Translations under genes and position numbers: made by a program
Shown here: one piece after another, positions 480-31,750 of the stretch
How positions within the stretch are numbered: position 1 is the first letter of the stretch
Layout: each line of letters begins with the position of its first letter
Assembly: GCF_965363235.1 (NCBI RefSeq)
Contig: NC_134847.1
Location: 64,044,144-64,108,143 of the forward strand
Source of the DNA: Mytilus galloprovincialis
Taxonomy: Eukaryota
Reading direction: 5' to 3'
Length of the DNA stretch: 64,000 nucleotides
Notes under the pieces: model-generated
Told to the model about the DNA's origin: nothing
Databases searched by the model: none
What the model saw: the letters and a program-made list of their open reading frames with translations, nothing else

Positions 480-745
480 ATAAATGACATGAAACAAGAG
501 TGTGTGCCCCATCCGCACTATCATTTTCTATGTTCAGTGGACCGTGAAAATGGGGGAAAATCTCTGATTTGGCATTAAAATTAAAAAGATCATATCATAA
601 AGAACATGTGTGCTAAGTTTCAAGTTGATTGGACTTCAAGTTCATCAGAAACTACCTGGACCAAAAACTTTAACCTGAAGCAGGTCAGACAGACAGACTG
701 ACGCACAGACCAGAAAACCGTGTGCCCATAAATGGAGCATAAAAA
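480..745 (-). mobile_element. MITE-like element (family with ends tttatgc.catttatgggca ... gatagtgcgagtggggcat), copy 1
   Basis: The reverse complement matches 30295-30660 and the split copy at 21640-21790 plus 22780-23000, sharing the core ggttaaagtttttggtcaaggtagtttttgatgaagttgaa.tccaatcaacttgaaacttag. It abuts the donor site of CDC5L exon 6. Confidence 0.65.
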
Positions 746-1496: not shown

Positions 1497-1939
1497 TCAT
1501 ATCAAAATCAATTTCAACACTGATTTAATAAAGAAGACTATATATATATATATTTATGTTATATATCTGCATGTTGAATCCGTATTTTCCGGAACTGTAT
1601 AGTCTTAATCATGAGTGTTGTGATTATTACATGTATCCGCCTCTTTTTGTGTTTTAATCCAAAGTAAAAGGGTGTAATTTGAGAGCTCTTCATTTATTTA
1701 TATTCCATACTTGTCTTTAGTCCCCCAAACATGAGTCAGGTATATTACCTGGTGGAGGACCCTGGCATCGATCCCGGTACCTCTCGCATATAAATACAAT
1801 ATCGAAATGAGAAGAATAAGTGCATCAAACAGATTTTACATAATAAAAATGTGTAAGGGTTCCGTGGAACCCAGTGTCTCGCCTACTTTTGCTGTAAATT
1901 GCAGGATCAACAAAAATGAGGGAAAAAATCAATAAAAAT

Positions 1940-2640
1940 ATTCCGTTTGATACCATGTTTGGATTGTAGGAAGCTTCTGTCCAAGTTTGGTAAAAATCCT
2001 GGATAGTTTATGAATCTAATAAATGTTTTAAAAACTTTAACTGCAGACTGGATGTAATGTTAACTGGAAGAAAAACTAAGTCCTTTTATAAGTAAAATAC
2101 AGATACACAGGTACAAAATATTAACAAAATTTCCTTCTAGATACTAGCTTTTGATCATAAACAAGCTTCTGTCTTAGTTTGGTACAAATAAAAAATAGTA
2201 TAAGAAAGTTATCAAAATTTTTTAAAATGTAACCACAGAGTGAATGTGTTGTTTCCTGGCAGAAAAAAAGTCCATTTAAAGTAAAATATGGAAAAATGGA
2301 TTTGTCAATTTACAAAATTTACTTCTGGATACTATCTTATGATCATAAACAAGCTTCTGTCCAAGTTTGGTACAAACCAAGGATAGTTTAAGAAAGTTAT
2401 TAAAATTTTAAAAACTACAACCACAGAGTGATGTAATGTTTTCCCGCAGAAAAACTAAGTGCATTTATAAGTAAAATACGGAAAAATGGAATTTTATTTT
2501 CACAAAATTTACTGCTGGATACCATCTTATGATCATAAATAAGCTTCTGTACAAGTTTGGTAGAAATCCAGGATAGTTTAAGAAAGTTATTTAAATTTTA
2601 AAAACTTTAACCACAGAGTGAATATTTGTGGACGCCGCCG
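1940..2640. repeat. Tandem repeat, ~190-bp unit x ~3.5, followed by a GC-rich (CGN)n tail 2630-2700
   Basis: The marker aagcttctgt recurs at 1971, 2163, 2351 and 2541. Units carry the core atcataaacaagcttctgtccaagtttggtacaaa...aaccacagagtg. The array lies in CDC5L intron 4. Confidence 0.8.
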
Positions 2641-2889
2641 CCGACACCGACGACGACGGAATGTAGGATCACTTAGTCTCGCTTTTTCGACTAAAGTCGA
2701 AGGCTCGACAATAATATATTGTATTGAATTGTACTTGTGATTTTTGGGGGAGAATTTTTAATCATTACACAATTTAATCACCACATAAAAGATTTATGCA
2801 TTTAAGAATCATGAATATAACAATCCATCGAAAAATATTAACATTAATATTGCATTATAAAATATTATCATAACAAATGATCTTTTTTA

Positions 2890-3642: not shown

Positions 3643-3837
<195 letters not shown>

Positions 3838-4653: not shown

Positions 4654-4890
<237 letters not shown>

Positions 4891-5292
4891 TTATACAATT
4901 GCAGGGATCTCCATGACCTGTTTTACGATGGCGCCCCGCCATCGTTCCGTTACCTTGCGCCATCGTCAAATTGTCTCCTCCATGGTTAAATTTGTCTGCG
5001 CCATCGTTAAAATTATTGTCAATATTTATTTTTGTATCGTAGTCGTCGCCATTTTTGTTTGTCAAAATGCAAGCTTAATCATCTCCGATACTGGAGAGTA
5101 ATTTTACAGGTAAATATACAGTACGGTATAGACAAAAACCCTACGGCTGTACATAAATTTTACCAATCAAGTTAATAAAATTAGAAGGTATTATATATGT
5201 TTGAAGGTGAAATCGAATTTTATAGGTTTTGAAAAGTGTTCACAACGTAAATAAAATTGAAAATAATAAAAAGTGTTTTTATTCCGATAAAA

Positions 5293-11539: not shown

Positions 11540-13291
11540 ATGGCTTCTTCTAAGTCTTTACAAAGAGGACAAATTCCAGTAGGTTGTGAACTTTGTGATG
11601 GTGGGAATAAAATCAAATTTAAATGTTTGGACTGTCAACTTTTAATGTGCAGCCGATGCAAGGATAAAGTCCATGCTAGATTTAAAAATGCAACTGAACA
11701 TAGGATTAGAGACATTAAAGAGCTGGATCTGGAAGAAGAAGTGGATACATTTAACTTTAGAGATGTTAAATGTCTAGAACATCCAGACCAGGCTTGCTGT
11801 GTATACTGTCAAACTTGTAAGAAAGTCATCTGTTTAAAATGTGTAACCAAAGTCCACAATGGACACACCTTTATTGATGAAGAAGAGCTTAATGATAAAA
11901 AGACGATAACTAAAAGTGGACAGAAGAAAACTGATGAAAGTATACATAATTTGACCAGTACATTACACAAAGTTCAGGACATAAAAGATCAGGAAGATGC
12001 TAAATTTAGAAAAATCAAGCAAGATATCTTTAGTCACAGGGATGCTTTTAAGTGTGAAGTTGATAAGCATGCTGATAATCTTGTAAAAGATCTGGAGCAG
12101 ACATGGGAATTAAATAGCCAGGAAATCGGGGCAAAGCATAGCAAGATTAAGAAAACCTTAGAAAACTTACAGAGGAAGAGTAACACTGTAAAAAGTATTA
12201 CAACTTCAAAAGATTTTGTCAAATTCTTTGATGATTTTGATAAATTTGCTGTTTCTTTGTGTGGAGCTACACCACAAGAAAACCTTGAGTTTTCATTATT
12301 GAGGAGATTCTTGCCAGACAAAATTACAATGGTAAATTTTGGATCAAAGGAAAATAGAGGAAACTTGGAAATTCAACATCCTAAAATTGAGTTTAAAATT
12401 GCTAAACAATTCACCACACAATTAAGAAATGTTCATAATATTTGCAGATGTTCTGATGGTACTCTGTGGATTTATGATGGTATTCTTGAAAAGTTGCAAC
12501 ATATAAAATTTGATAATCAAAATATTACGATTATGTCAGAGTCAAACTGTTTTTCTATTTGTGACATGGCAGCAATGAATGCATGCACAAACCTGGTTGA
12601 AGCAGCCTTAGGTGAAACAAAACTGTTTATTATCATTGAAACAAAACTGTTTATTATCAATAGTAGCACTGTATGGCTCAAACATGATGAATCCAATTAT
12701 GATGTGAGACCATATACAAATTGTACATCACAAAGTCAACCAGTATGTGTCCATATAACCAAAGATAACAGAGTTATAGTAGGTGTAGGACGAAGAGGAA
12801 CGAAGGCTGCTGTGGTAGTGATGGGCCAGGATGGTGGATGCTTGGAAAAATATGAAGAAGACAGCAACAAAGAACCATTATTTACACAGCCTAGATTAAT
12901 TACAAGCACCAACAATGGCAATATCTGTGTTGTGGATGGGATAGATTCTGATTGTAGAGTCTTGGTATTAGGAAAAGTAGGAGATATCAAACAGGTGTAC
13001 ATTGGTCAACCAAAAATCAACACTGAAGAAAAAACATTTACGCCCTCTGACCTGCTTACAACTCCTGCAGATAATATTGTAGTTACAGATATATTCATTT
13101 CTACACTACACATATTGAACTCTGAGGGGAAATTTATTGGTCATTACAATCTGCATGACATTGGAATTATATATCCATGTAGACTCACTTTGTCTACAGA
13201 AGGACATATTTATGTAGGATGCTCAAATACAAGGGACAGCCCAGAAACTTTAAAAGCCAAAATTTATGAGTTGGAATATTCTGGATTCTAG
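11540..13291 (+). CDS. RING-less TRIM-like protein: B-box1, B-box2, coiled coil, C-terminal NHL-type beta-propeller (583 aa, single exon)
   Basis: An uninterrupted 1752-nt ORF. Two B-box zinc-finger spacings are present (CELCDGGNKIKFKCLDCQLLMCSRCKDKVHARFKNATEH and CLEHPDQACCVYCQTCKKVICLKCVTKVHNGH). A K/E/Q-rich heptad region follows (residues ~120-230). The C-terminal half carries NHL-like blades (NGNICVVDGIDSDCRVLVL, ADNIVVTDIF, EGHIYVGC). The ATG context is acatcaaaaATGG and AATAAA lies 35 bp after the stop. The architecture resembles the TRIM2/3/71-like family. Confidence 0.75.
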   Translation: MASSKSLQRGQIPVGCELCDGGNKIKFKCLDCQLLMCSRCKDKVHARFKNATEHRIRDIKELDLEEEVDTFNFRDVKCLEHPDQACCVYCQTCKKVICLKCVTKVHNGHTFIDEEELNDKKTITKSGQKKTDESIHNLTSTLHKVQDIKDQEDAKFRKIKQDIFSHRDAFKCEVDKHADNLVKDLEQTWELNSQEIGAKHSKIKKTLENLQRKSNTVKSITTSKDFVKFFDDFDKFAVSLCGATPQENLEFSLLRRFLPDKITMVNFGSKENRGNLEIQHPKIEFKIAKQFTTQLRNVHNICRCSDGTLWIYDGILEKLQHIKFDNQNITIMSESNCFSICDMAAMNACTNLVEAALGETKLFIIIETKLFIINSSTVWLKHDESNYDVRPYTNCTSQSQPVCVHITKDNRVIVGVGRRGTKAAVVVMGQDGGCLEKYEEDSNKEPLFTQPRLITSTNNGNICVVDGIDSDCRVLVLGKVGDIKQVYIGQPKINTEEKTFTPSDLLTTPADNIVVTDIFISTLHILNSEGKFIGHYNLHDIGIIYPCRLTLSTEGHIYVGCSNTRDSPETLKAKIYELEYSGF

Positions 13292-13325
13292 TGATCTAAA
13301 ACTGTGTAAAACTGAATTAATTTTG

Positions 13326-13331: not shown

Positions 13332-13714
13332 TGATTTTTGATTTTGATAATATATCTGCTTTATATAATTATAGTGTGTGAAATGACAAAAAAATAATAC
13401 TTAAAAAAACATACATGTATATATATCAACATTAATTTGGAATTGATTTGGATGTTATTTTGACTCCTCAAGAACATTACTCATTAGTTTCCTATTCTGA
13501 AAAGGGTTGATCAAATATATATCAAGAAACATTTATTAAATTTTAAAGAAAAGTGTGGACACAGACTGGTGTTGTCTGAGGTGCAAATTTTTCATAATGA
13601 CTTGTGCCAGGATTGCTTTGGCAGATGTGGAAACCAAGAACAACTTTTAGAAGAAACACTTAAAAATTAACATGACTGCACCCGATATGTTGCTTATTTG
13701 ATTTTATCATGGTC

Positions 13715-14180
13715 CGAGACCACAATTGTCGTCCCTTGATTTTCGTTGTTCACGAATATAGTCCCTATAGTGTTGACAGTGGGTTACTTGCCAATATTTT
13801 TATACCCCTTCCAAATTTATTTCTCCATGTTTTATGCCTCAAATTGGAAGTAGGGGGGGGGGGGGGGTGAAATTACACTGTAAAAAAATTTGGGTCCAGA
13901 ATTTTAAAGGAAAGTATAGTGATTTGGTCCAGCTGAAAAAGGTTAAAAATTAGTATTTTGGGAGCTTTCAAAAGATTTCAAGGTGCCCTAAACATAAAAT
14001 TGTCCATATTTTGAGTTAGAGCTGATGAAGTTTTCTATAATTTTGATATAATTTGTCCCAAAAGTAGTACAACACACTGTAAAAATTTCATTGAGAAAGC
14101 GCAGGTGGGATTTTTTTAATTTTCATTTATGTTCTAAAAGAAATGCACTACAAATTAATTGTGGTCTCAGACCTAAGAGG
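13715..14180. mobile_element. MITE with TIR GGTCYGAGACCACAATTG (~470 bp)
   Basis: ggtccgagaccacaattg at 13715 and caattgtggtctcagacc at 14163. The interior contains a G16 run. A third partial end (ggtctgagaccacaactg) is at 20444. Confidence 0.6.
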
Positions 14181-14554
14181 TGAAATCTGTAAATATAGAA
14201 TCTGTACCTTAGCAACTTCCCTAAATTATTTGATGGTGATAATTTGTCAAATAGCATGAAACTAAAGGAGTTCTATTACTTATTTATGAACTCTGAATCT
14301 ACAGAAAAGAAGGTTATCTCAGACAATATGTGCAAAATGTGTTGTATAAATGACCCTTGTCTAACGCCTGTTTGGAAGAAGTCAAAAGTGGAGAGCTTGG
14401 TACTTAAAAGTTGAAGTCCATCAAATAAACCTCACTTAATTTGTATAAAAAGCACTTTACAATGTCTATTGTACCTGTTTCATTTCACATAATATCTTTA
14501 TTTTCTTCTGTAGAATAGTAAGTGGTTCAAATATAAGCCTGTTGAGACTAAAAT

Positions 14555-14622
14555 CATGGTGGGTATGGTTGTCCTGCGAGAGAACGTTCTGTGCTGGTGA
14601 TTCGGTCCTGACTGGTGCTGGT
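14555..14622 (+). repeat. Left TIR of the Transib-like element
   Basis: See the element entry. The three mismatches against the right TIR are all consistent with CpG deamination (CG to TG or the equivalent). Confidence 0.8.
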
Positions 14623-15469
14623 GGGTCCTGATTCTGTGCTGGTGGGTTTATTTACATTGTATCAGAACGACAATAAAACAACTGTTTTGTTGCTTAATTT
14701 TTCTCTGATACGTCATAAGTACCATGCAAAGTATATTACAACAATATTTTATTGCAAAAGTCGTGCAAGTTCGTTAAATGAAATTGTCCTGACGCTGTGC
14801 TGGTGATAAGAAAAACGGTCCTGGTTCTGTGCTCCTATGTCCTGGTTCTGTGCCTTTATATTTTAGTCAAAAGTGGCAATTATTCAAGATCGTTGTTGCT
14901 TAGCTGTAATTGACTAATTAGTTGTTATCTGTGTTCTTAAAATTGACATTATTGTGAATCTGTTTACTGCAATTATGAAAAAAGAACCCATAATTTTTGA
15001 ATTGACTGTTTTCTGTTTTTCTTATTTAAAATGATTTAAACAGATGTTATCGGTTATCAACATTTTAATGTAATGAAATTATAAACAAAACAGACATACA
15101 AGACTTACAAATCCAAGAGTCGCCTGACTTGGACCGGGCGCTAAAATTCTTGGGGATTTAACATGTTTTGTACGAATCAAAAATAAACAAAGTTGAGCAA
15201 TGCAAACAATCAGACTCAGGTGAGCCTGAACACTTCTTAGATGAGTTTGGATAATGAATTCAGTGTAATTTAAACATCCTGAATATTGTTTCTCTGACAA
15301 ATTTGTATGATACTGTAGATACTTTTCTTTTTATTCAACCAAATGAAACTCAGCCTTGTTTCTGTACGTTAGAATCGTGTGTCTTCAGCAGCTACAATCA
15401 GATTTCTTTGTAAACAAGTTAGTGCTGACTAAAGGATGACTAGTCTATTATAGTTTTTTTTTAATGTTT

Positions 15470-16000
15470 TTTAATGTTTTTTTTGGGGGGGGGGAGTAAG
15501 AGGGACGTCTGAATTTGTCAGAGAATGAAGACGATATAACCTAGATAACACTAACAGAAATAAGATTTTTTAAGTTTTGCATTTTATAATCCCAAAAGAA
15601 AGTCTGTTGTCAAAGATTTTTTATAATTTTAATTAAAATTGAGTGAAAAACGAGTGAACGGAAAAAAATACCAGTCTAGAAATAAATATTGGTAATATCG
15701 CGAGGCTTTTAAGTTTTGTGTTCCAAACACACCTTCTCTGTAGTAATGACTCGTTACTGAGGTATTTCACTTCACGCATTTGTTTCATTTTTTGATACAG
15801 TGAATTCTTAGTATTATAACATTAACATGTAACCTTTGTATATATTTTTTATAAATCGAAACTAAAGCCAGATATATTAAACATTTTTTATTTATGTGTT
15901 TTCAGGACAAAACAATCAGTTCAAACACGCCTTGGAAGTAGAATGCGATAAAATGATTGCCCATTTTTACTCCCCCCCCCCCCCCCCAAAAAAAAAAAAG
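15470..16000. repeat. Inverted pair of (T)n(G)n AGTAAG / CTTACT (C)n(A)n homopolymer junction motifs ~480 bp apart, inside the Transib-like element
   Basis: 15478-15505 ttttttttgggggggggggagtaagaggg is the reverse complement of 15955-15999 ttttactcccccccccccccccccaaaaaaaaaaaa. Similar C(n)A(n) junctions occur at 30826-30855, and a G16 run at 13851-13870. Confidence 0.5.
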
Positions 16001-18472
16001 AGCTTTTGCTGGATGGGGAAGAAGGATCAGATATGCAAATCAAAATCAATATTTCATCTTTTCGTGTAAGTTTTTTTTTCTCAGTTGAATTTATACTTGT
16101 TTGCACCTACAGAAATCGGTTTTGTTAAATGTGCTTTTAATTTCAAAAACACAGTGTGTTATAGTAGTCTCAGTGTTATAGTTGTCTGAGTTATAAGGTA
16201 GTGATATATGTCGTATGCTACGGTTTAATACGAAACTAGGTTAAAATAACGTAGCTAACTATAAGGAGACTCACATTATCCGATGAATTGATATCCGATA
16301 CTGTGTTATAGTAGTCTCAGTTTATATATGTATATGAATATAATTATGAAAGATAGCATGGTCACCAGTATGTGAAGTCCCTAGCTGTCATCTGAAGTTA
16401 ATACTAAGCATAGCTCTAGAAATCGACAGATAGTCATGACATTTAAAAAAAAATCTCTCTTGTTTTCGAAGTTTTTGTAGTTTTGTTTTACCTAAACAAA
16501 TTGACACACACATAAGTATAGTATTGTTTATTTTTTTAACTTAATATATACATGGGTAACACCGGTTACTGGGATAAAAAATCCTGTCACGTGGAAATAT
16601 TTATCAGAAAAAAGGATGGAAATATGAAAATTTACGTGCGATGGGTGCAACAGCATACCGACAATTAACATGGCTCACCAGGGTTGAATCTTAAAAGTAA
16701 ATCAAACTCCATAAACATTTTATTTACAGCCTAAAATACTATTCTTTTGAATAAAGATTTTTTGAAACCAAAAAAGATTATCTCCCCTTCCTACAAACAT
16801 ATTGCAATTTCACAAATATTTTACTGAATATGAAATGTTTTTATTCACATAATGTGTGATTCTTATGAATATAGAATACTTTTCGAAAGAAAAACTATAT
16901 AAAAGCTTAGTTTGGACATTTTTATAGCAATTAAAAATAAAACAGTTCACCTTTAGTATGGTAATGGCTATAATATAACTATACAGATTGATAGACTGAT
17001 TTAGTAATACCATCAATAAAGTGGAGTTAAAGTCTTATAGGATTGTAAGTATATTTTATTTTATCACCTTGCACTTTCACATTTTGACTGAACAATTTGT
17101 TCAATATTCTGACCAGTTGAACAATTTGATTTTATAAAACAAATTGCAATTTGGTCAAAATTTTGAATGAGTTGCAATTGGTGGATAGCAACACTAACAG
17201 TCAAGTCACTGTAAATATAAAAAAAAAGATGTGCTTACGATTGCCAATGAGATAACTGTCCGCCAAGTCTTTCGCCAGAACATACTATATTTTTTTTCTT
17301 ATCCTAGTTTAACTTCCATGCAATCTCTACCCCTTCATGATCATTAACTGTGAAATACTTCTCGGTATCTTCTCAATTAAGATGTCTGATTTATACATAG
17401 TTATGAAATAACTGTTGTGAGCACAAGATTCACTGCACACTTTCAAAGTTCTGCTTTATCAAACATTAAAACATGAACTTTTTGATCGGTACGAGTGAGA
17501 TTTTTATCTAAGATAACTTGGTTTATCTACCGGTGTTAGTTGAAAATGCGGCTTTGAAATAGCTTTGAAATTCACAGTAGCTGCGAGTATGCGTTGTTCA
17601 ATAATTTGTCCCTTAATGTTATTGTTTTATGTGATAAATTTTTGTGTTGTTACACCACTGAACCAATGAATGAGGAAAGGAGGAGGGGTTGGTTTGATGG
17701 AGTTGCATGAGGTGTGTGGAACGCATATTTAACTGAATAAACCAGTCAAACCTTAATGTCAATATAAGACCCCCTCTTATAAATGTCGCTTTACTTTAAG
17801 CACCTTTTAAAACCGTTTAAGTTAACATATTATGTAAAGAATCATCAATTGAAGGGCATTTAATATCTTGAATAAAACTATTCTAATTAGATATATTTTC
17901 ATCTGATATTGGACGGAAGATGTTGCTCATTTATGTAATATGAGTTACTATTATTTGAAAACGCTTATAAAACAGCCAAATGGATGCACTAAAGTGAAAA
18001 AAGGAGTCACAGATCCGATTGAATACAATTATCAGCCAAATTTTATTGATTTTGTAACATTTGTTTCAAATATGACAAACCTTTTACCCAAAATCACCAG
18101 CACCGTATCAGGACCCACCAGCACAATGACAGGACCCACCAGCACAGTATCAGGACATAAATAAACTGAGAAAGTGCAAAATTTTCTTAAATTGCACGGG
18201 TTTTTCACAAAATAATTTTGTCTTTTGGATTTGAGTATACAAAGCAGATTTCATGAGCATTTTTGTTTTATTTTTCCAGTTCTAGATTTTCTGAAAATGT
18301 GCCCTTTTGTGCTACGCTTACTGAAACAGTTTAGAGGGTTAATTTTTTAATGGTTTGCTTATAAACCCATAAAAAACAAAATTGAAAAATCTCAACTGTT
18401 TCCTTCCATTTTTTATGAGAGAAAACGTCAAAAATCATCATTTTCGTCTTTGTTTACATTTTTTCAATGATC

Positions 18473-18540
18473 ACCAGCACCCGTCAGGACCGAATCACCA
18501 GCACAGAACATTCTCTCGCAGGACAACCATACCCACCGTG
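18473..18540 (-). repeat. Right TIR of the Transib-like element
   Basis: Reverse complement of 14555-14622. Confidence 0.8.
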
Positions 18541-21479
18541 AAAATTGCATACAAGTTTTCACTAAAAAGGCAAAAAACTTTGTATCAGACCATACTGTCT
18601 GCAAGAAAAGTTAAATGCAAGAGTCTTTTTGTGCTCAGATTTGTTGTATCATGTCACATGAGTATAGAAATGATAAAAAAGACACAATTTTTTATTTCTT
18701 GCCCATACAGAAATTGCTAACAAAAGCACATAAGTTTCACATGTGAAGCACATGAGATGCAAGTAAGAATTGTATGCAAATCAGGTTGCTCATATGTGAA
18801 GTTTGGTAGTTCATATGTGCCCACAAAAATCTAACATAATGCTCACATGTGCAATTCAAACCTCAGGTGAGCTTTTATCATCCATGTTAGTTTTATGTTA
18901 GTTTTGTACTTTGAAAAGTTTTTCCATTCTTCTAACCATTCAAAACTAACCTACATCATTGCTCATATGAGCTTTTTCAAAATGACATGCCCAGTCATGT
19001 ACTTCCTGTAAATTCAAATTCATGAAAAGCATGCAATAAATGGAGGTAGATGGATATGGAAAATGTTAAGTCCTATATTGTGCTATTTGAAGAAAGGCAT
19101 TGTTGAAATCTGATAAAACCAGTGTGGCTGTGGTTAATTATTTGTAAGTTATCATTTCTATTTCATTATTTTCATTTTTTGTGTCAGATTTTGAAATATA
19201 TTACAATTTTAAGTCCTTTATTGGAATATATATATACAGGTTGGCTTCAAAATAAGTACTACATGTATAAAGATTTTTTCCTTTTAAACTTTTTGAAATA
19301 CAGTACTTATTAATCAAAGACATTCATTGTGTACTAAACTTGCAAGTCCCTCTTTTAGTTTTATAATGTAATGTTATGTTTTTATTCATGATCATGATTA
19401 TTGTTTAAATAAAAAAAATTAAAAAAAATGATATGAAAATCATAATTAACTGACAATAATTAAAGAATAACTCTTTTAACATGATGTATCAGTTATTTTA
19501 TTTTCAACTGAATTATTTAAGATTTTCAATTAAATTAGAAAAATATTCCTTTTTTAAAGCAGCCATTTTGTTTTGGTCAACTATAATATTCACGTGTGCA
19601 ACATGTTAGCAACTGCTCATATGAGCAATCTAATAAAATGCACATGTGAAACAAAAGCTCATATGAGCAGTTGCACATGAGGTTTTTAACATGCAAATTA
19701 GGTTAGTTTCATATGTGCAATTTTTTTGCTCACAAAATGCTCACCTAATTTGCATGTTAAAAAACTCGTGTGCAATCATGTTAGTTTCTAACGTGAGCAT
19801 CTTATGTGCAACTTATGTGCAACATGTAAGAACTTTTTGGTAAGGGTATAGCCTCAATATGCATTTTTTAATGTCAATATGTGGCACGGCCTAAATTGAC
19901 CCTAAATTATTTGTAGTCTTACTTGGCCTAAGACCATTTATACTAATATGATATGTTATTTGTAACTTTTCTTTCCATTTAAAGTACATTCAATACATAT
20001 GTAAGGATTATTTATAACCAAAAAGCTTCACAAATTTTAAATTGCTGGAAAATATTACATCTTCATGTAATGCCCCCCTTCATTAAAAAACCTCAATTTT
20101 TAGGCGCAGGCTCATATAAATTTGACTTTTGAATAATTATGCTAAGTCTGACAAATCAAATGAGTACTCTATTGCATTTAGTACATGATAATTGATATAT
20201 TTAAGCACTTAAAAAGTATATTTTTGCAATATTTTAATTTTTAATGCCCCAAGTGTTGATAGTTGAAATTTTTCAATTTTAACGTCAAAATTTAACACGC
20301 AAAGTTGAGTATAGAATTTAACATACTGTCTATAATATATCTCCTATTGTTATGATACATTGTAAGCAGTGTTATAATTTATAAAGCTTTAGTCATACCA
20401 AGTTTTATTAAGATTGGTCAACTTTTTCTATCCTATTAGGTCTGAGACCACAACTGGTCATGTCTCAAGATTTAAAGGAGTGAAAAAAACCTTAAAATTA
20501 TCAAATTTTTGAATTATGAATTAATTGCAAGAAAAAAGTGTCAATACTGCAGAATATAAGGGGAAATTTTGATATTGATATATTGATATTGCAATGAATA
20601 AATATAGCATATTTTATGTTTTAAGACATATACAAATAAGTCAGATGACCAAAACTGTTTATTGATTTCTTATAGGAGTTATATTGTTCATGAAACACAT
20701 TTTTAATTAATTTAAATTTTCAAAGTTTTTTGCAAAGAGTATGATAGAGAAAAACTTATAGTGGCACTACTATTCAACAAAGTAAAAGCTGAAAAATGGG
20801 CTATCATGACCAATCGTCAACTGATCCTTTATGAGCGTTATTGCCCTTGAACCAAAAATGTTAGATTTTGCAGAACTTATGTTAGGTACTCATAAATGTC
20901 AAATATGTAAACCAAAGTAACTAGACCTACAAATAAGTTAACATGACTGAAATTGACAATTTTTTGTAAGCTCTTATATGAGTTATTGCCCTTGAAAGAC
21001 AATTTTTGCCAATATTTTTTTTAATTTTTTGCAGAAAATATGATAAATGCCCTCAGAGAGAAACATTAACATGATTAAATGGCAAAAAGTTTATCAAATT
21101 GATATCTACAAATAAGTTGATATTAAATGACAAAAACAATGTTTTTGACTTATTAATGTCACTTAGTGTATTGGTCTATTTTACATACACGATCTACATT
21201 AATGGAAGTAAATAAGGTCTATAACAGATAAGAGTACAAGCAAACCAAATATCCAAATACTAGAATCATATTTTTACCAGTTGAGTAATACCAGATCATA
21301 GGATCCTCTAAATGTTTATTTTGAAATAACTGCTTGAAAAAAATACAGTTTTTTTGTAATGTGAATTTCTCATTTATGATTGATTAATAATATTGTTATT
21401 GTTTTAATGCCACTTTTAAGCCCCACATTAAGGATATTTCGTGATGGCCAGTTTGTATTGGTTGAGGAAGGTGGATCTC

Positions 21480-23390
21480 ACTTATAAGTAATATGATAAC
21501 TATATTTGGTATATGGATTCCTTGCAACATCTTCATGTCGATCTGTCAGGGTTAAGCTGACCTTGCCCTCATATTCATGGTTCATTGGTCAATGTAAAGT
21601 TATTTTGTTTTGGTTTGTTTTTTATGCCCCACCTACGATAGTAGAGGGGCATTATGTTTTCTGGTCTTCGCCTCCGTTCGTTCATCCGTCCGTCCTTGCG
21701 TTCCTCCGTTCGCCCCACTTCATGTTATTGTCGAGCCTGCAACTTTTGTTGCAGAAAGCTCGACATAGGGATAGTGATCCGGCAGCGGCGGCGTTAGCTA
21801 ACTTCTTAAAAGCTTTATATTTTAGAAGGTGGAAGACCTGGATGCTTCATACTTTGTATATAGATGCCTTATGTTACGAAGTTTCTGTCAGTCACATGTC
21901 CAATGTCCTTGACCTCATTTTCATGGTTCAGTATCCACTTGAAAAAAAAGTTCAGATTTTTTGTAATGTTGAATTCTCTCTTATTATAAGTAATAGGATA
22001 ACTATATTGGATAAGTGCGTACCTTGCAAGGTCCTCATGTCTGTCAGACAGTTTTCACTTGACCTCAACCTAATTTCATGGATCAGTGAACAAGGTTAAG
22101 TTTTAGTGGTCAAGTCCATATTTTAGATACTATAAGCAATAGGGCTAGTATATTCGGTGTATGGAAGGACTGTAAGGTGTACAAGTCCAACTGGCAGGTG
22201 TCATCTGACCTTGACCTCATTTTCATGGTTCAGTGGTTATAGTTAAATTTTTGTGTTTTGGTCTGTTTTTCTCATACAATGTGCAATAGGTCTACTATAT
22301 TTGTTGTATGGAATGATTGTAAGGTGTACATGTCTAGCGGGCAGATGTCATGTGACCTTGACCTCATTTTCATGGTTCAGTGGTCAAAGTTAAGTTTTTG
22401 AGTTTTGGTCCTTTTATCTAATTCTATATGCCATAGGTCAACTATATTTGGTGTATGGAAATAATTTATGATCTTTATGTCAGTCGTGCAGGTTTTTTTT
22501 TACCATGACCTCATTTTCACGGTTCATTGCACAGTGTTAAGTTTTTGTGTTTTGGTCTATTTTTCTTAAACTATAAGTAAAAGGTCAACTATATATGTTG
22601 TATAGAAGCATTGTTAGCTGTACATGTCTGCCTGGCATGGTTCATCTGACCTTGACCTCATTTTCAAGGTTCATTGGTCTTTGTTTAGTTATCTTGGTTA
22701 ATGTTCTGTTTATGTGATAGTTGTAATAAATTTTAGCTTTATACTTAGGACTATCAACATAATATCAATGATTAGTATAGAAGGCGAGACATTTCAGCAT
22801 GCCCACTCTTGTGTTAAAGTTTTTGGTCAAGGTAGTCTTTGATGAAGTTGAAATCCAATCAACTTGAAACTTAGTACAAATGTTCCCTATATGGTATAAT
22901 CTTTCTAATTTTAAGGCCAAATTATATTTTTTACCAAATTTCACAGTCCATTGAACATGAAAAATGATAGTGCGAGTGGGGCATCCATGTACTTAGGACG
23001 CATTCTTGTTTAAGTACTTTATTCAATAGGTCAACTATATGTTATGTTTTGAATGATAGCAAGAGGAACGTGTCTCTCTGCCAGATATCACATGACCTTT
23101 TCCTCATTTATTTGGCTCAATGGTCCAATATTAATAGCAATAGATCAGCTATGTTTGGTTTATGGTATACTTATGAGGCGTACATGTCTGTCTGGCAGGT
23201 ATCATGTGAACTTTAGCTCATTTTCAATTTTTTGTGTTTTAGTCTGCTCTTCAATTACTATAAGCATTATAATAGTTTAGTTATATTTGGTATATGAAAT
23301 AATTGTAAGGTATTCATGTCACATCTTCCTGTATCTGTTTGACAGAATTTATATGACCTTGACCTAATGGTCATGGATCTTTAAAAACAC
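21480..23390. repeat. Satellite-like tandem array, ~150-bp units with core gaccttgacctcattttcatggttcagtgg, ~12 units
   Basis: Units recur at roughly 21530, 21890, 22040, 22190, 22340, 22500, 22650, 23080, 23210 and 23340. The array is interrupted by the two halves of a MITE (5' half 21640-21790, 3' half 22780-23000). The 197-aa ORF at 21506-22099 is a translation artefact of the repeats. Confidence 0.75.
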
Positions 23391-23549
23391 CAGTGATATT
23401 TCAGCATTTACACTCTTGCTATTAGTAGAGAAAGCCTAAGTGTTGGAAGTAAGCTGCAAACCTTCAGCTAGGAAATGGGAATGGTAAATATATAGATATT
23501 TTAAGATGAGTCTTATGTTGTCAATTTAGATCCCTAATAATATATGTTT

Positions 23550-23705
23550 CAGTGGCGGATCCAGCCATTTTGAAAAGGGGGGGTTCCCAACCCAGGACAA
23601 AGGGGGGGGGGGGGTTCCAACTATATGTCCCCATTCAAATGCATTGATCGGCCAAAAAAAAGGGGAGGTTCCAACCCCTGGAACCCCCCCCTGGATCCGC
23701 CACTG
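23550..23705. mobile_element. 156-bp MITE with TIR CAGTGGCGGATCCAG and 5-bp TSD TGTTT (Transib-like MITE family, copy 1)
   Basis: 5' end cagtggcggatccagcc, 3' end ggctggatccgccactg. The perfect direct repeat tgttt lies at 23545-23549 and 23706-23710. The interior is G/C homopolymer-rich. Confidence 0.7.
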
Positions 23706-24432
23706 TGTTTAGGTATTTTTTGTTAGTTTGATAACTTATTCCTCCTGATGAGATATTGAATTTTATACATTGTATTGACATATGCATGACAGCTTTAGGA
23801 TAATTGATTGATATCCTGCCAATAGATACATTTATTTATTGAAGTAAAGTTGCAAACAACATACTTGGAAAATGACAACCCTCTTAGTTGGTACTTTTGG
23901 GATTACAAGGTCAAAATAGTTGCATTTTACAATTTCTCTTTGTATAGCCACCACCCTTTTATGATGCTGCATATATAGTAAATTCACATACTTTTCAGAC
24001 GACCAAATCCCAAAATTTTAGTGCTAGTTGGTACACCCCTTTTTTCAAAATCCTGAATCTGCTCCATGACTACAATAAGAGACTGCGTGTATTAGACTTT
24101 TAGTAAAGTTAAGTGCTCTTCATTTCACTTGCTATTGCTCCTTAATGCCATTGCTAAGCTAATTACCTGAAGGAATTACCAAATATAAAACCAAATACCT
24201 TAAAGTGGTATTTGCTGCTTCTATATATAAACTAAATATACAGTATAAGAGCAAAGACTGGTTGGATCAGAGTCAGAATAATATGTCTGCATAAGGTGAT
24301 AAGTCTACCTGCTGACTGTTATCTTGTAAACAAGCACTTTAAGATCTGCCTCAGCAGGTTGGTCTAGAACAGTGCAGGAAATCAAGTCACATTGTATAAA
24401 TGTGTCCTCGTCCTGTATAATATGCCTTTAAC

Positions 24433-24830
24433 TTGCTGCTGGACATTAAAACCATTACATTGTCTTCATGCCATCATATCCATATTGGAATTAAAGCTGA
24501 AGACAGAAAGTGTAAGCTATGTAAGAACGCAGTTGAAGACGAACTACATTTTCTTTTAAAATGTCCTGTTCTAAAAGATACTAGATCTCAACATCTATCT
24601 AATTTAAATTCAAAATTCAAAAATTTTTCAAGATTATCTGATGAAATGAAATTTGTTTGGATTCTTTCATCTGAAGATTTGTTTGTTACTTCAAACTTAT
24701 CTAATTTATTGCACTCCCTTTTTGAAGAACGAAAGAAAATTATAGAAAATATTGTTGTTTGAAAAAGAAAAAAAAAATAGAAGAAAAAATATTTATAGAT
24801 ATATATATATATATATATAGGAAATAAAAT
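24433..24830 (+). mobile_element. 5'-truncated non-LTR retrotransposon (LINE) 3' end: ORF2 C-terminal CCHC-like motif plus A-rich/(TA)n tail
   Basis: The ORF contains CKLCKNAVEDELHFLLKCPVLKDTR, the CxxC...HhhxxCP motif found at the C-terminus of LINE ORF2 proteins. It terminates at 24762 and is followed by aaaaagaaaaaaaaaatagaagaaaaaa and (TA)10 at 24800-24820. No RT domain is present upstream. Confidence 0.5.
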
Positions 24831-25701
24831 TGATCAGGAGTTGTCTCCCATAGACCTAGAACTATAAAGATTTATGTAATTTCTCCAGGTCACAGTGGCA
24901 CCCATAACTATGTTTGTCAATAACTTGATTTATATCAGGTTAATTAGTGTAAATGTGTATTCATGTGTTTTTTTTGTTTAAATGTACTTTAATCATTCTA
25001 ATCATTTTCTGTGCTTTATTTTGTAATTCATTTGATTGTATAGCTCAAATTTTGGGCACCATGATTGGTTAATAAAATTATCTTATCTTATCTTATCCTG
25101 GCCATTTTACCAATGTTCAAACCTAATAAATTAGTTAAAAGCAATTCTATTCACTATTTCAATCTTTCTTAACATATACATTTTAAATTTTTTTGCAATC
25201 CCTGTTTGTTTTTTTGTGTGTTTCATGTTGCTCTAGTTTGAATGTACCACAGTAGTGTTTTGTGGACTTGTTTGTCTTTTTCTATTTTTTTGTCATGTCA
25301 GTTTCTCTTCAGCATATTGAATTTTGTTGTGGTATCTTCTGTCGCTTTTTTTGTTTTTATTCTTTTCTTTAATAAGATTGATCAATGTGGGATTATGATT
25401 ATAGTAAAAGTTTTATACCCAAACAAACAGATCATAGACAAGATTTTGGTGGCACCATAAATGATATCTACCTCTTCTCTCGGTTGAGTTTTTGAAACCT
25501 TCCAATTTTTACAGTGTTTTCTTTCTGGTTAATTGACTTTTACCAATTATCTTGTGGCATTGTATATATGTTGATAACATGCTACTGATTTCTATTGATG
25601 TAATATTTGCAGAGTTCAAATGATGTGGATATGGCTGAGTACAAGTTTCCTGTCATCAACTAATTAAGAAATAATTCATGGAAGCCATAGATTTGTTGGA
25701 A

Positions 25702-26286
25702 AGGAGTAGGTTCAGTAAGACCCCTTTTTGGCCCCAAAATATACCAGTTTTACAAAATTGTTAAAATGTAAAACTTTAGTTATTTATTGGACAGTAGAAT
25801 GCTTCTGCTACATAAATATGGGCTGTTTTTTACAATACAATGCACATATATCCGGTACTAGCACCATTAAGTCATGCTAAATTACTGAAATCCTCATAAT
25901 TCTAGCATTTTAGTTAAATTTTAGACGGTTTTCGTGTAAAACGAAAGTGGCCGCATTCGTGTTCATCCTTAATATTGAAATGTAAGTTGTATTTTATGAT
26001 AATACATAACATATATAAAGGTTGAGGATGAACACGGATGCGGCCACTTTCATTTTTACCAAAAACCATCTGAAAAGTGACATTTTTCGGCATATTATGT
26101 AGATTTTTCATATTTGAGCTTGAATCGGATCGTTTTTAATGACTAAATCTGTTAAAATCTTTTACATAAACTAATTAATTCAAATAAAATAGACACTTAA
26201 GTGTTTAAAAAGTGGTCAAAATCTTTCGTCAGATGAACCTGAAATTTGAGGCCAAAATCGGTCCTTACCGGACCTACTCCTTTACA
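25702..26286 (+). mobile_element. ~585-bp non-autonomous TIR element (TIR aaaggagtaggttcagtaagacc) with an internal 26-bp-arm hairpin; copy 1, nested in a small palindromic MITE
   Basis: Ends aaaggagtaggttcagtaagaccc and ggtccttaccggacctactccttt. The internal inverted repeat gaaagtggccgcattcgtgttcatcc / ggatgaacacggatgcggccactttc lies at 25940-26065. It is flanked by an outer inverted repeat aattcatggaagccatagatttgttg (25674-25699 and 26379-26404) and a 31-bp-arm hairpin at 26281-26376, i.e. it is inserted into another small foldback element. Confidence 0.65.
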
Positions 26287-26376
26287 CATGGCCTGGGCCG
26301 TGATATTCGAATTTTATCCTGAGCGTTAGCGAGGGATAAAATTAACGAATATCACGGCCCAGGCCATGTGTAAATT
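26281..26376. repeat. Foldback: 31-bp perfect inverted arms ttacacatggcctgggccgtgatattcgaat with a partly palindromic 30-bp spacer
   Basis: tttacacatggcctgggccgtgatattcgaatt ... aacgaatatcacggcccaggccatgtgtaaattt. Confidence 0.8.
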
Positions 26377-26599
26377 TACAACAAATCTATGGCTTCCATG
26401 AATTATTTCGATTCTAATAGGACAAATACGACCATTAAAAAACTGAAACGATGATGGGTATACCTTGTGTGTGGCTGTTCTATTTTACCCACTGTTCGAT
26501 AAATGTAAAACAAATCTAATAAACCTGCATGAATGATTTCTTAACTAACCGCTAGAAAAAAAATGTGATTACTTTTTTTACTTCTCAGTAAACCCAACA

Positions 26600-27130
26600 T
26601 TTGCAATTTTAAATCTACATTTTTTATCGTAAGCTACCGTCAAATTCACTGTTGACATGTTGTAACCAAGGAGCCGCCATGTTGACTTTCTGAAATCAGT
26701 AAATGTGCGAATAATGCAATAGAACAGAAAACAAGCAACACCTACCTCAATACTTTATTTTAATGCAATTGTTTCCGAGTTTAGAAGGTAAACGCAGTAG
26801 AAAAACCTTCAGCTTTGACGTTTTCATTCGTATGACGTCATGTTTTTAAATGACGTTAATGCGCAAAAGTCATTACTGGAATTTCGCGGAATTTTAATTT
26901 ATTTTGTTTTTGTCCATTTTTCCGTTCTCTAATGTTTTAATTCTTTTTTGTTATGCATCAGAATCAGAATAAATGTTCTGTAGGGTTTTATTCAAGTGTA
27001 ATTGTTAACACTGCGAAATCCACAACCGTTTACACATAGGTTACGATACATGTGGATTTACGTGGGAGGCATATTTAAACAGCCATTTGTGTACATCTTG
27101 GAGTCTGCGCTAAGCATGGATATATCGAGA
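26600..27130. promoter_or_regulatory. Locally GC- and CpG-enriched island with a CRE palindrome TGACGTCA (26834-26841) and two TGACGTT half-sites; candidate promoter/enhancer of an unidentified gene
   Basis: gacgttttcattcgtatgacgtcatgtttttaaatgacgttaatgcgcaaaag. ccaaggagccgccatgttgac at 26659 is related to the satellite-unit core. No adjacent exon was identified. Confidence 0.25.
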
Positions 27131-30100
27131 ATTTTATCACGGTGTTTACAAAGCGAAAGAAGCACGTCATATTAGAATTTGCAACTACATGTGTTCTTAT
27201 CTTGATGAATATGCATGAAATATTTGCAACTGGACATGTAATCAACCAAATTTTAATAAATCAATCAAAGCCATGGTTATTCAATGAAGCAAAATAAAAG
27301 TAGGTTTTTTTAACATTTGATTCATGTTGTATTAAAAATAATATGAAAAGCAACAAATTTTCTAATAAAATTCACAAGATATGAAGTTATTAATCATATA
27401 TATAAGAACTTGCATAACATCATACTGCCATGAGGAGGAGTAGATTTTTTGTAGAGATTTAAATCACTTTATAAATCAGAAAAGCCATTAAACTTGTGAA
27501 AATAGCAAAATAAAATGAATACAGATTTGTTTTACAGTTTTGCACATGTGTATAGTGAAAGCTGGAATGAGTTTTAGTGAAGAGCATCTCAAATGATCTT
27601 TACTGTCAGTTGTTAAAGAGATGACTCATCTAAATCTGTACATTAGAAAAACGATGCCAGTGGTTTTTTGAATGGCAAGATCTGCTGCAGAATGGAATTT
27701 GAAATCCTGCAACTAATTAGCATAAGGTATGTGTGTATGAATTATTGAAAATGCATGTATTATAATAGATGTAGTGAATTAATTGGATTAATAGTTCTTG
27801 AATACTATATTGCAGCATAGCTATTAATGCTATTTACACATTCTGACAGTGCATGCATGGTGATTGTTATTGCATAAACAGGAAAGATTTTATTTTAAAA
27901 GTGACCTATATAGGGAATTTTGTTTACACAACAGTAAAGCATTAAATAGATTCAGAAACATTCTCATTGAAGCTTTAAGATTTATAATTTCCTGCCACAT
28001 TATTATTAGATATTTCCTTCTATTTCTTATAGAAGAACATAGTTATTTTTTTTTCTGGTTTTCTTACCAAGTTTGAAATAAATAAACTGTTCTAACATTA
28101 GAAGATCACTGTAAAATCTCTAGTGTAAAACATATAAACTGTTCATATTAGAAATTAGCTATTCTGTTCTGATATTAATGTACTGTAAAAATATAAGTGA
28201 ACCAACACCTGAAGTGGTGATTGTGCGGTAGGGTAAAAACGAGTGGATACCGCTAGGTATTCACAGTCATCTTGAAAAAAATGAAAATGTCGACAATAAA
28301 GATGATGCCTATCTTCTAGGCGAAACATGTAGACCCAATAAACAGATACTATGCGGTAAAAACATGAGTGTTGTTGTATTTATTGTCGACATTAATTACG
28401 TACTGTAGTAAAAGAGAAAAGATCACGCTCACCTGGATCAAGGTTATATGAGTAATTTGGGTTTTGTTACCTGTAACTTTTTTCAAATTTCTTTTTTAGC
28501 TCACTGGTCTAAAAGGCAATGTGAACTTTAGCAACCACTTGGCTTCTGATGCTGTTTTCCATCCATCGTTGTTAAGGTAAAGTACTGAAAGGCATTGTAG
28601 AATGTAAAAATAAATAAGTGAGGTATGATTGCCAATGAAACAAATTTCGACCATAAATGGCATGAATGTAAGCAGCTATAGGCTTTAAAGCCTGCAAATT
28701 GAGCATTACCTATGCTGTATAACTATAAGAACCTTGAACATGAAAGAATATGAAACAATTCAAATAAGAAAACTTATTCTGATTTACTGAAAAACAATAA
28801 AAGAAAATCAAGCAGACAGCAACCTGAATGACAACCATTGAATAACATGCTACTGACTTGGGACAGCTTCATGAAGAAATATTGGGTGTTAACACAGGTT
28901 TGTGAGGGTTCCAACTCCACAACCTTTTTAAGACTGCCTATTATTTTGCAGCTTTGATTTAATTGAGAAAAAAAACTGCAAATTAGTCAGTGTCCACAAT
29001 CAAAATCAAATGTTGAATCCCCTTAAATCCAATAAAGTAGGAATGAATTGTGAATCTGAAAAGTATTGGGTAAACCCTACATGTTTAGATTTAGATTTAT
29101 TTCAAAGATGACCTTCATCAGACATTGTACCGTGAAATTTATGACACTAGAGATATGCATTTTTATTCAATGACCATAAAAGTTGATAATTTTACTTTAA
29201 ACAAAATTCACTGAAGCTGAAACTAAACTATCTTCTTGTAATTTGATGAACAGTAAACATTTAAGGCATCAATACATTGTAAATTTATCGTAATATGACC
29301 CTGACTTTACTGAATAACTAAAATATTTGTCTTAGTATCATATTTCACATTGATAAACTACACGGATAACACTTTAGATGTCTCTTTATCAAATTTTGTG
29401 AACAATGTATATTTTTCGGCCCAATTAAATTTGAATATGATGATACTTGATAGTGTCTTTTGGTCGGCTGGGTAGATGGCTGATAAGGATTAAGAGTAGC
29501 TTCATTGAAAAGTATGCTCTCAAAAATATTGATAATTGTCTCAACGCATATGACATTTAACATTGTTGATATCCGGTTTTATATATCAATATCTTTAAGG
29601 TTACATTGTATTGTAATTACAAAGGTATGTAAGTTCTTTTGGAGTTTTACAGGAGTTGACATTTATAGAAGTAATAGGGATAGTCATAAATTCTAAAAAA
29701 AGTATGTCTATATATTTTTTTAATATGGTACAATAAATAAACGCCTTCCTACTTTGTTTAGCGTTGTTAAGACAGAGGGTCACAATGGTTATTATGTCTG
29801 TTCATTCATTTTGTCTTCCATCCAGGTTTTTTTTTATCCATAATTTGTCCTTAAATAGCTTATCTTTTCCTAGTCACAAATGTCTTCCATTATTAATTGG
29901 AATTAAACTTGTCTGATAAATTTGATAAAAATGTTCATTTAGCTATTGATTAATTAAAGTATAAAAAGATTTAGTAAATATCAACTATTAGCATAGACAA
30001 ACTTGTTGCCTTGTATGAATTTAAACCTTTTTTTGGTTACACAAATCCCAAACCCTGAATAAAAGTGAAACTACCTAATTAAGAGTCACTTATCCTATGT

Positions 30101-30289
30101 TTACCATAGGCCATTTTATTTGCTTTGTAGTTAAAAAAAGAACCACTGTATACATGTTTTCCAGGTGCGGGAATTTCTCGCTACATTGAAGACCTATTGG
30201 TGACATTTTGCTGTTGTTTTTTCTATGGTCGGGTTGTTGTCTCTTTGACACATTCCCCGTTTCCATTCTCAATTGTATTAATATGTTTA

Positions 30290-30660
30290 TATTATATTTA
30301 TGCCCATTTTTATGCCCAATTTATGGGCATTATGTTTTTCTGTCTATTGGTCTGTTTGTGCGCCCGTTCGTCCATATGTCTATTCTATCATCTGTCCGTC
30401 CGTTCGTACATTCATTTGTCCATCCATCTGTCCTGCTTCAGGTTAAAGTTATGGTTAAAGTTTTTGGTCAAGGTAGTTTTTGATGAAGTTAAAGTCCAAT
30501 CAACTTGAAACTTAGTTCACATGTTCTCTTTTATATGATCTTTCTAATTTTAATGTTAAATTAGAGTTTTGAATCGAATTTTACAGTCCACTGAAAACAG
30601 AAAATGATAGTGCGAGTGGGGCATCATTGTACTATGGACACATTCTTGTTTTTGCCTAAG
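30290..30660 (+). mobile_element. MITE-like element, same family as 480-745, intact copy
   Basis: It begins tttatgcccaatttatgggcattatg (a hairpin), has a cgtccgtccgttcgt-rich region and ends gatagtgcgagtggggcatc. Aligns to the other copies. Confidence 0.65.
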
Positions 30661-31099
30661 AAGGCGATCCATATTGCCTATGTATATGGTTGATATTGTG
30701 AAAAAATAATGACAAAAGTTTCAATGAGTATTTTAATGTTGATATTATTGAAATTATTGATATTAAAGATATACACAATAAAATAACAAAAGATTAATGC
30801 ATTAAGCATATTAAAAAAACACCCCCCCCCCCCCCCCCCAAAAAAAAAAAAACCTGTATAATATTACATGAAGAGGTGACGACCTTAAGAATATTCCTTT
30901 TAAGTTTTTACAACTTGAAAGAGATTTTAATAGATATACTCATGCATTAATTATTATAATTCATGGTTGAAAGATTTTTCCTACAGTATGATCTTTGATT
31001 TAAATGTCCTTGGTACATTTAAAAGTAAATATAAAATTGAATATTTAATGTTTACAGCTTTCTTTACACTTTTAGGGTAGGTCTTCTTCTATTGAATAT

Positions 31100-31750
31100 T
31101 ATATATAGAGTTAACGGCTTTGAAATGGATTCTACTATTTTCCAGCTTTCTTGATACTTTGATAGTAGCTGTAGAATTTCTTCTGTTAGATACAACTTGT
31201 TCTGTTTACAGCTTTGGTAGATTTTATCATGGTCAGCTTTCATTGAATTTTGTTAATCCCTCTTTTATTTATAGTCCTCACAAGACTGTGTTCTGTTTAC
31301 AGCTTTCACTGTATGTGTGAGTCTTCATCTGTTTGAAGATTTCACTGTATTGTGATATGTATTCTTTTATGTTTTAGCTGTACTTGGGTGTAGGTTCTCA
31401 TGTTTTCAGCATTTACTTTACTTTGGTAGGTCTTCTGGTTTTAGCTTTCACTTTACATGAGTAGTGGGTCCTCTGGCTTTCAGCTTTCACTTTACTTAAG
31501 AAGGTCCTGAGGTTTCTAGCTTTTACTATACTATGATAGATCTTCCAGTTTTAGCTTTCACTTTAGTGGGGTAAAGGTCCTTCTGTTTTCAGCTTTCACT
31601 TTACTGTGGTAAGGTCCTTCTGTTTTTAGCTTTCATTTTACTTGCATATAGGTCCTTCTGTTTTTAGCATTTAATTTTCTTTCTTTGGTACTGTTTTCAG
31701 CTTTTATGCCACTTTGGTAAATTCTTCTGTTGTATAGATTTATGTTACTT
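31100..31750. repeat. Degenerate minisatellite, ~38-bp unit (ggtccttctgttttcagctttcactttact), ~17 units
   Basis: agctttcac(t/a)tta recurs with a 36-40 bp period. Confidence 0.7.

Follow-up and report, generated by a model that had tools for sequence, protein, structure and literature searches.

The interrupted repeat at 21300-23419 of the window (the whole stretch of 64,000 nucleotides of Mytilus galloprovincialis DNA that was analysed) is very probably a nest of three non-autonomous, non-coding transposons, in which a compact element of family 1 (MITE A) lies within an old element (O) and is itself occupied by an array-carrying element of family 2 (X). On the forward strand, the left part of O (21300..21623), made up of decayed 147-bp monomers from the array of an older X-type element, is followed by the left flank of MITE A (21624..21722), the 1090-bp element X (21723..22812, with boundaries accurate to within a few bases), the core and right flank of MITE A (22813..23011) and the right part of O (23012..23419). 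The satellite-like array of 147-bp monomers carried by X was delimited at 21904..22699, also on the forward strand, by TRF, nhmmer and a monomer identity matrix. The window is AT-rich (31% GC), and an intronless B-box/TRIM-like ORF at 11540-13291 shared 98% identity with a protein of M. galloprovincialis, 90% with one of M. edulis and 81% with one of M. trossulus; an exact-sequence look-up gave no record of the protein itself. A preliminary description of the locus had placed an array of about 150 bp periodicity between the two halves of a MITE, and further satellite beyond both halves. Both observations were confirmed, and the halves were found as well, with corrected limits: the left one, given as 21640-21790, was located at 21624-21722, and the right one, given as 22780-23000, at 22813-23008. 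Bases 21723-21790 belong to X and not to the MITE.

MITE A is one discrete insertion into O and its halves are not two independent insertions, because its subterminal repeats match perfectly over 9 nt, its excision rebuilds a 147-bp monomer and the orthologous site of M. edulis is empty. The preliminary description had called for a check of whether each half was a separate insertion with its own complete ends, and this check came out in favour of a single element. The left flank contains the 5' subterminal inverted repeat ATGCCCCAC at 21624-21632, a complementary internal repeat GGGGCAT at 21646-21652 and a (GTCC/CCGT)n-like microsatellite at about 21670-21712, and it was predicted to fold into a hairpin of -9.9 kcal/mol (z -6.2), with none of 200 shuffles folding as well. 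Downstream of X, the core of about 165 bp leads to the 3' subterminal inverted repeat GTGGGGCAT at 22976-22984, which is 9/9 complementary to ATGCCCCAC and lies 24 nt from the terminus ...CATTCTTG (23008), or 27 nt when the 3' T-run (TTT) that follows is included. The left and right flanks were then joined at all nearby junctions and each product was scored with the monomer profile. Deletion of 1388 bp gave an exact 147-bp monomer of O scoring 71.6 bits across the junction, compared with 37.4 and 26.8 bits for the two unjoined pieces; the last left monomer of O was cut at about unit position 66, and the right part resumed at about unit position 67. In the M. edulis orthologue (L007, OY782957.1), the sequence ran straight from the equivalent of window position 21623 to about 23009. 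Window 20469-21623 aligned with 12128-13263 of this locus at 93.8% identity, and window 23003-23059 was found directly next to it at 13258-13314. M. edulis carries 9 T's at the site against 6 before and 3 after the insert in the window, so no target-site duplication accompanied the insertion of A. T-runs were present at both ends of all family-1 copies.

The two halves of A matched compact copies in which no array intervenes. The 3' half (22813-23011) was 84% identical to 30454-30651 (E 1e-56) and 84-85% identical to a minus-strand copy at 675-505, and the 5' half (21618-21719) matched the 5' ends of compact copies, at other Mytilus loci, with 82-84% identity (E 1e-20 to 1e-23). Two compact copies in the window had been correctly recognised in the preliminary description, with a length of about 370 bp that was not retained. 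Copy B, on the forward strand, extends over 30312..30648 (about 340 bp), its left flank is joined directly to the core and right flank, and a 12-bp partial duplication of its 5' end precedes it at 30300-30311. Copy C, on the reverse strand, extends over 495..740 (about 250 bp); its microsatellite is (GTCT)n, and 15 nt are deleted close to its 3' end. Four more compact copies were located at other loci, namely L008:19284-19604, L009:14378-14665, L010:5513-5818 and L014:14579-14876. Family 1 was encountered seven times in about 200 kb of Mytilus DNA, comprising the window and the loci obtained via neighbouring paralogous genes, and X was present in A only, the other six copies (B, C and those at the four loci) being compact. 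Locus L011, which repeats the match pattern of L009, and locus L013, which has a similar pattern and is likely the M. edulis orthologue, were not counted separately. When X was removed, A was collinear with all six compact copies in the alignment. The insertion of X mapped to the family-1 consensus site ...GCTTCA|GGTTAAAG..., and the sequences across the two MITE/X junctions are CCCCACTTCATGTTATTGTCGAGCC and CACTCTTGTGTTAAAGTTTTTGG. Independent insertions of X-type and family-1 elements are present at other places too, M. edulis and M. trossulus included; at L010, an X-type array is broken by a 2.3-kb insertion in which the compact copy lies.

X, which is unrelated to the MITE, is a mobile unit in its own right, with conserved termini of its own and the array as cargo; its independence follows from the recurrence of the same ends at other loci, where the flanks are unrelated and the MITE is missing. 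Its modules are ordered as a 5' end, a (GGC)n microsatellite at about 21781-21793, a spacer, the 147-bp array, a second spacer and a 3' end. The 5' end, TGTTAT-TGTCGAGCCT (repeat at 21729-21738), includes a nested hairpin and the internal repeat GCTCGAC, and the left-flank hairpin GTCGAGC...GCTCGAC reached -15.5 kcal/mol (z -7.4). The 3' end contains AGGCGAGACA (22782-22791) and terminates in ...CACTCTTGT. Of the ten bases of TGTCGAGCCT, eight are complementary to AGGCGAGACA, both in X and in the related element D, and these two mismatches recur unchanged in the five independent copies in which both ends or the 3' end are present. Within the window, the exact 10-mers TTGTCGAGCC and AGGCGAGACA occur only twice each, and both pairs flank a tandem array. 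Metagenome contigs were scanned with the conserved satellite box of the array, which yielded Mytilus-like contigs. Among them, L004 contained a copy 95.8% identical to window 21720-22816 between unrelated flanks, the MITE being absent (L005, which has the flank of L004, was counted with it as one locus), and L003 contained the 3' 650 bp of X at 89.8% identity with a different flank and the same 3' end. Contig L001 from the same scan was rejected as an element copy, its match being a chance 20-mer in DNA of 48% GC. A further copy with the same two ends and other flanks was found at L010 of M. galloprovincialis. The flanks of X within the MITE are not clearly of the T|T type, and its 5' boundary could lie a few bases away, since L004 also shares the tca immediately before it.

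The second pair of 10-mers, in the correct order and orientation, surrounds the array of element D, a second member of family 2 on the reverse strand at 1850..2716 with a 190-bp array of 3.4 copies. D has the same 5' module as X (TTGTCGAGCC, hairpin and GGC/GTC microsatellite), and its 3' module combines AGGCGAGACA with the palindrome GGGTTCCACGGAACCC (GGGTTCC..GGAACCC). In a profile search, the 190-bp array showed no homology to the MITE core or to the 147-bp monomer. Same-strand homology between the MITE core and the 147-bp monomer was also rejected (z 0.8, not significant). The inverted alignment of the two was marginal (z 3.0, a score that 15 of 1000 shuffles also reached), a motif of the MITE core resembling the inverted complement of the conserved satellite box at 77% over 26 nt.

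The 147-bp array was reported by TRF at 22060-22679 with 4.2 copies, 75% matches and a score of 620, and the nhmmer monomer profile widened these limits to 21904-22699, which gives about 5.4 units, all of them position-specific variants. Monomers at the same position in different X copies were 92-99% identical overall in the identity matrix, with 96-99% at each of five positions between the window and L004, 89-93% between the window and L003, and 96-98% between the sole full-length monomer of L010 and its positional counterparts. Neighbouring monomers within one array, by contrast, were only 61-81% identical. This combination of high same-position and low neighbour identity indicates that the array was inherited as an ordered block; in the L010 array the copy number differs and the position identity is retained. 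The comparison of monomers across the array, proposed in the preliminary description as a way to reconstruct an order of expansion, thus returned variants shared position by position between X copies and no local expansion. Judged from these monomers, the array is an old ordered block that was copied with its element, and the repeat was neither born nor locally expanded nor homogenised at this locus.

Decayed monomer-like sequence outside the MITE halves was detected by nhmmer at 21483-21623 (matches at 21483-21553 and 21558-21640) and 23013-23380, and constitutes O. The rebuilt monomer of O was 61-76% identical to the monomers of X, and the variant that forms the first monomer of X matched 21333-21380 at 80% identity. 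The right part of O ends in the X-type 3' end ttcagcatttacactcttg (23400-23418), in which 16 of 19 bases are as in X, so that O is, by its 3' module, an older X-type element. Upstream of 21300, no 5' end of O was found. The left part of O is common to M. edulis. O is older than the split between M. edulis and M. galloprovincialis, and the M. edulis reference has neither A nor X here. In M. trossulus, the orthologous locus is occupied by unrelated sequence instead of O and gives no clear date for it.

Based on this arrangement, a succession of three layers can be proposed. O, an old array-carrying copy of family 2, would have been present at the site first. The compact family-1 element A would then have entered a T-run within one 147-bp monomer of O without target-site duplication, and a younger 1090-bp family-2 element, X, would have entered A between the core and the left flank with its microsatellite, bringing along an array of about 5.4 monomers of 147 bp that was already complete and ordered. 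Ordinary nested insertion accounts for the structure, in which abundant elements came together by chance. X-type arrays account for about 3% of the sampled Mytilus DNA, and it is therefore unremarkable that one of the seven MITE copies lies inside such an array.

With respect to element class, both families are by their structure probably of the non-autonomous Helentron build (HINE/pearl/DTC84/DINE-1-like). Elements of the HINE type have on their 5' side a subterminal inverted repeat, a repeat complementary to it within about 1-22 bp and a GTCY-type microsatellite, in their centre a variable spacer and central tandem repeats in fixed orientation, and on their 3' side a right flank with a 3' subterminal repeat and a short palindrome; they insert at TT or into T-runs without duplication (PMC7492417, PMC4067079). 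The 5' subterminal repeat and the complementary internal repeat were present in both A and X. Microsatellites were of the (GTCC/GTTC)n type in A, B and the family-1 copies at the other loci, (GTCT)n in C and (GGC/GTC)n in X and D. The putative 3' palindromes of A and X folded no better than shuffles (z +0.06 and +0.25, respectively), and that of the family-1 copies is only an imperfect TGTAC-NNN-GGACA. Family 1 shows all HINE features except that its 3' palindrome is not convincing and that it has no array itself, and X and D show all save perfect subterminal complementarity (8/10), the palindrome of X being unconvincing as well. A third, textbook HINE-type element was recognised at 49150-51169, with a 166-bp array of 10.8 copies, the repeats AGCTCACCTG / CAGGTGAGC, a 5' hairpin (z -5.4), a GTCC microsatellite and the palindrome AGGCTC..GAGCCT.

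No long ORF of the Helentron type (Rep, helicase or endonuclease) was found within the window, and the family-1 right flank had zero matches in prokaryotic genome contigs and viral contigs. A Rfam scan of 21000-24000 gave no match with E up to 1 and no tRNA was found in 20000-32000; a SINE or structured RNA element was ruled out, there being no Rfam or tRNA feature. At the loci examined, classical satellite DNA was ruled out too, since every array there had at most 6 units with neighbours 61-81% identical. If the elements are of the Helentron type, a Helentron Rep/helicase(-endonuclease) acting in trans would move them by rolling-circle transposition, and this protein would recognise the terminal repeats and hairpins. 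The tandem array would travel as passive cargo, so that the same satellite would become scattered as short arrays across the genome.

The order in which the MITE came first and X struck it afterwards is preferred, and is probably correct. A possible, clearly less favoured alternative is composite transposition, in which X joined a family-1 MITE elsewhere and the resulting 1385-bp chimera moved into O by means of the MITE ends. The M. edulis site, which lacks both MITE and X, would agree with this alternative, as would the fact that no intermediate with the MITE and without X was seen; moreover, A has kept intact MITE ends whose 9-nt repeats match perfectly, and HINEs with two arrays or mixed modules are known in oysters (PMC7492417). 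Against it, no second MITE+X was present in the about 200 kb of Mytilus DNA or among the metagenome matches, a small sample in which X was always alone and six MITEs were compact. It is rather improbable that the chimera is a newly formed mobilisable composite, which gained its array by the strike of X and moved via its own ends; if true, it would represent a concrete route for reshuffling flanks and arrays among HINE families. In a weaker variant of the composite idea, family 1 and the 147-bp array may target each other preferentially. The arrangement itself is most unlikely to have arisen by assembly. Mussel genomes are repeat-rich, highly heterozygous and prone to mis-assembly, and a mis-join between repeats might have produced an apparently split element. 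However, a second, independently made assembly of M. galloprovincialis (L006) has the same composite, with 97.65% identity along 3.8 kb of collinear sequence. An artefact was excluded on the recurrence of the filled structure in that assembly, and all junctions are precise and biologically coherent.

Two further explanations were considered. The preliminary description had suggested that the satellite was born or expanded inside the MITE, or that a pre-existing array grew and parted its halves, a reading to which the position of the array between the halves, the similar monomers outside them and the inverted satellite-box motif in the MITE core lend some colour. This reading was contradicted by the termini of X, the order of monomers in L004 and the M. 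edulis site, and is very improbable: the array is enclosed by the 5' and 3' modules of X, which recur at other loci and around the unrelated array of D; copy number and variant order of the monomers agree with those of L004 at each position; the monomers are old relative to one another; and the outside monomers rejoin as one exact unit and exist in M. edulis without the insert. Of the broader claim that repeat birth and amplification were tied to a mobile element here, the coupling of satellite and mobile DNA stands, and birth or amplification at this locus does not. A descent of the elements from DDE transposons as classical cut-and-paste MITEs would fit their small size, lack of coding capacity, abundance and near-terminal inverted repeats, and such elements have long been termed MITEs (PMC3879986). 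This origin is very unlikely, as the comparison of filled and empty orthologous sites revealed no target-site duplication, and the repeats are subterminal, the ends asymmetric and accompanied by a 5' hairpin and a microsatellite, a combination that has been reassigned to Helentrons (PMC4067079).

With its empty M. edulis site and independent copies, the locus offers a clean, well-dated case of short arrays dispersed as cargo of putative non-autonomous Helentron-type elements in bivalves, and the appearance of a split MITE with satellite both inside and outside is fully explained by nesting. For the annotation of Mytilus repeats, the ends of two element families were defined and a third was indicated in the same window. 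Beyond annotation the significance is small, and the locus has no bearing on the birth of satellites.

Satellite-like arrays carried by elements of the HINE/pearl type are well documented in bivalves (PMC7492417, PMC3879986). A close parallel in build is Cg_HINE of oysters (PMC7492417), which likewise has a 5' repeat, a complementary repeat, a GTCY-type microsatellite, a variable spacer, an array of 100-200-bp monomers in fixed orientation and a right flank that carries the 3' repeat, and whose arrays are also short and dispersed. Its 'group 2' elements combine related flanks with unrelated arrays, as X and D do. Unlike Cg_HINE, A and X have a weak 3' palindrome, and family 1 lacks its own array. 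The term 'nested' does not occur in that report (PMC7492417), and the three-layer nest described here is a local accident. The elements pearl of Crassostrea virginica (Gaffney et al. 2003) and DTC84 of Donax trunculus (PMC3879986), read on the opposite strand, have a comparable succession of L flank, core repeats (1-5), (ACGG)n and R flank with an AA/TT insertion site, a similarity in build. In DTC84, ordered position-specific monomer variants are fixed while the copy number varies, as in X, and the monomers of pearl and DTC84 also carry a conserved box; their flank and monomer sequences differ from those found here, and X has a GGC-type microsatellite instead of ACGG. DINE-1/HINE elements of Drosophila and mites (PMC4067079) belong to hosts of another phylum and share the subterminal repeats, the internal repeat beside the 5' one, the microsatellite, the optional central repeats and the insertion into T-runs without duplication. 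MgE, with its associated satellites, comes from the same host species (Kourtidis et al. 2006, cited in PMC3879986 and PMC7492417) and, by the description available from these citations, is pearl-like with internal repeats; by the same description it was reported without a microsatellite, whereas both families studied here have one. Compared with these known elements by description, families 1 and 2 are possibly two undescribed families of Mytilus.

The terminal modules of X, the array-carrying element of family 2 at 21723-22812 (+), were also found in the second member of this family, D (1850-2716, minus strand), of which the cargo was an unrelated 190-bp array of 3.4 copies. Unrelated cargo is carried between related flanks in D and X. 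The D-type right flank was detected in M. trossulus as well, with 88% identity at positions 8509-8592 of locus L014.

On another M. galloprovincialis contig, L010, an X-type element (3410-6325) was observed whose array is interrupted at position 46 of a monomer; the interrupting insertion measures 2.3 kb (3752-6047) and itself contained a compact family-1 copy (5513-5818). L010 3410-6325 is a second multi-layer nest of family 1 and the X-type family. A motif of the family-1 core, CACAGTCCATTGAACATGAAAAATGA (22942-22967), located shortly upstream of the 3' repeat, showed 73-77% complementarity to the box that is conserved among the 147-bp monomers (22217-22236, 22364-22383, 22511-22536 and 22658-22683). 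The complementarity was barely above chance, since 15 of 1000 shuffles reached an equal score, and the likeness could be either a coincidence or a protein-binding motif in common.

Comparison between assemblies revealed that about 6.7 kb (13711-20468) was present in both M. galloprovincialis assemblies and missing at the orthologous loci of M. edulis and M. trossulus. The segment contained two 21-bp tandem repeats, at 14604-14647 and 18095-18156, which were reverse complementary to each other. This absence, together with the reverse-complementary repeats, suggested that the segment is a large transposon with long and structured terminal inverted repeats. Within it, 16727-17211 and 18701-19846 were not found in the other M. 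galloprovincialis assembly (L006), and these are probably haplotype insertion/deletion polymorphisms. Around compact family-1 copy C, the identity of 251-849 to L006 2300-2918 was only 86%, compared with about 97-99% for the rest of the locus; either the haplotypes are unusually divergent here, or the copies in this alignment are not alleles in the strict sense.

An intronless B-box/TRIM-like ORF of 583 aa was located at 11540-13291 (+), and its orthologous loci showed a Myb-domain gene upstream and a histone-fold gene downstream. Its paralogues were numerous in Mytilus, and the ORF belongs to a lineage-expanded family. Two further tandem repeats were identified, a very homogeneous 71-bp array of seven copies (40860-41354, 98% identity) and a degenerate 38/75/110-bp repeat, TTTTAGCTTTCACTTTAC... 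(31392-31668), about 740 bp downstream of compact family-1 copy B.

A complete HINE-type element, HINE being a non-autonomous Helentron (pearl/DTC84/DINE-1-like), was located at 49150-51169 (+). The tail of an interspersed repeat, ggttgggttgttgtct(c/t)tttgaca(c/t)attcccc(g/a)tttccattctcaatt, was common to 51440-51497, about 270 bp downstream of this element, and 30226-30278, directly upstream of copy B; it probably represents the 3' terminus of a further repeat that is abundant in Mytilus. The 166-bp array of the HINE-type element (49242-51028, 10.8 copies) showed a high monomer identity of 94%, which suggested that it is much younger than the 147-bp array, or else homogenised. The element displayed the textbook set of modules: a T-run, the hairpin-forming 5' repeat AGCTCACCTG (49155-49164), a (GTCC/GTC)n microsatellite and the array itself. 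These were followed by the 3' repeat CAGGTGAGC (51132-51140) and then the palindrome AGGCTC..GAGCCT (51146-51161), and another T-run closed the element.
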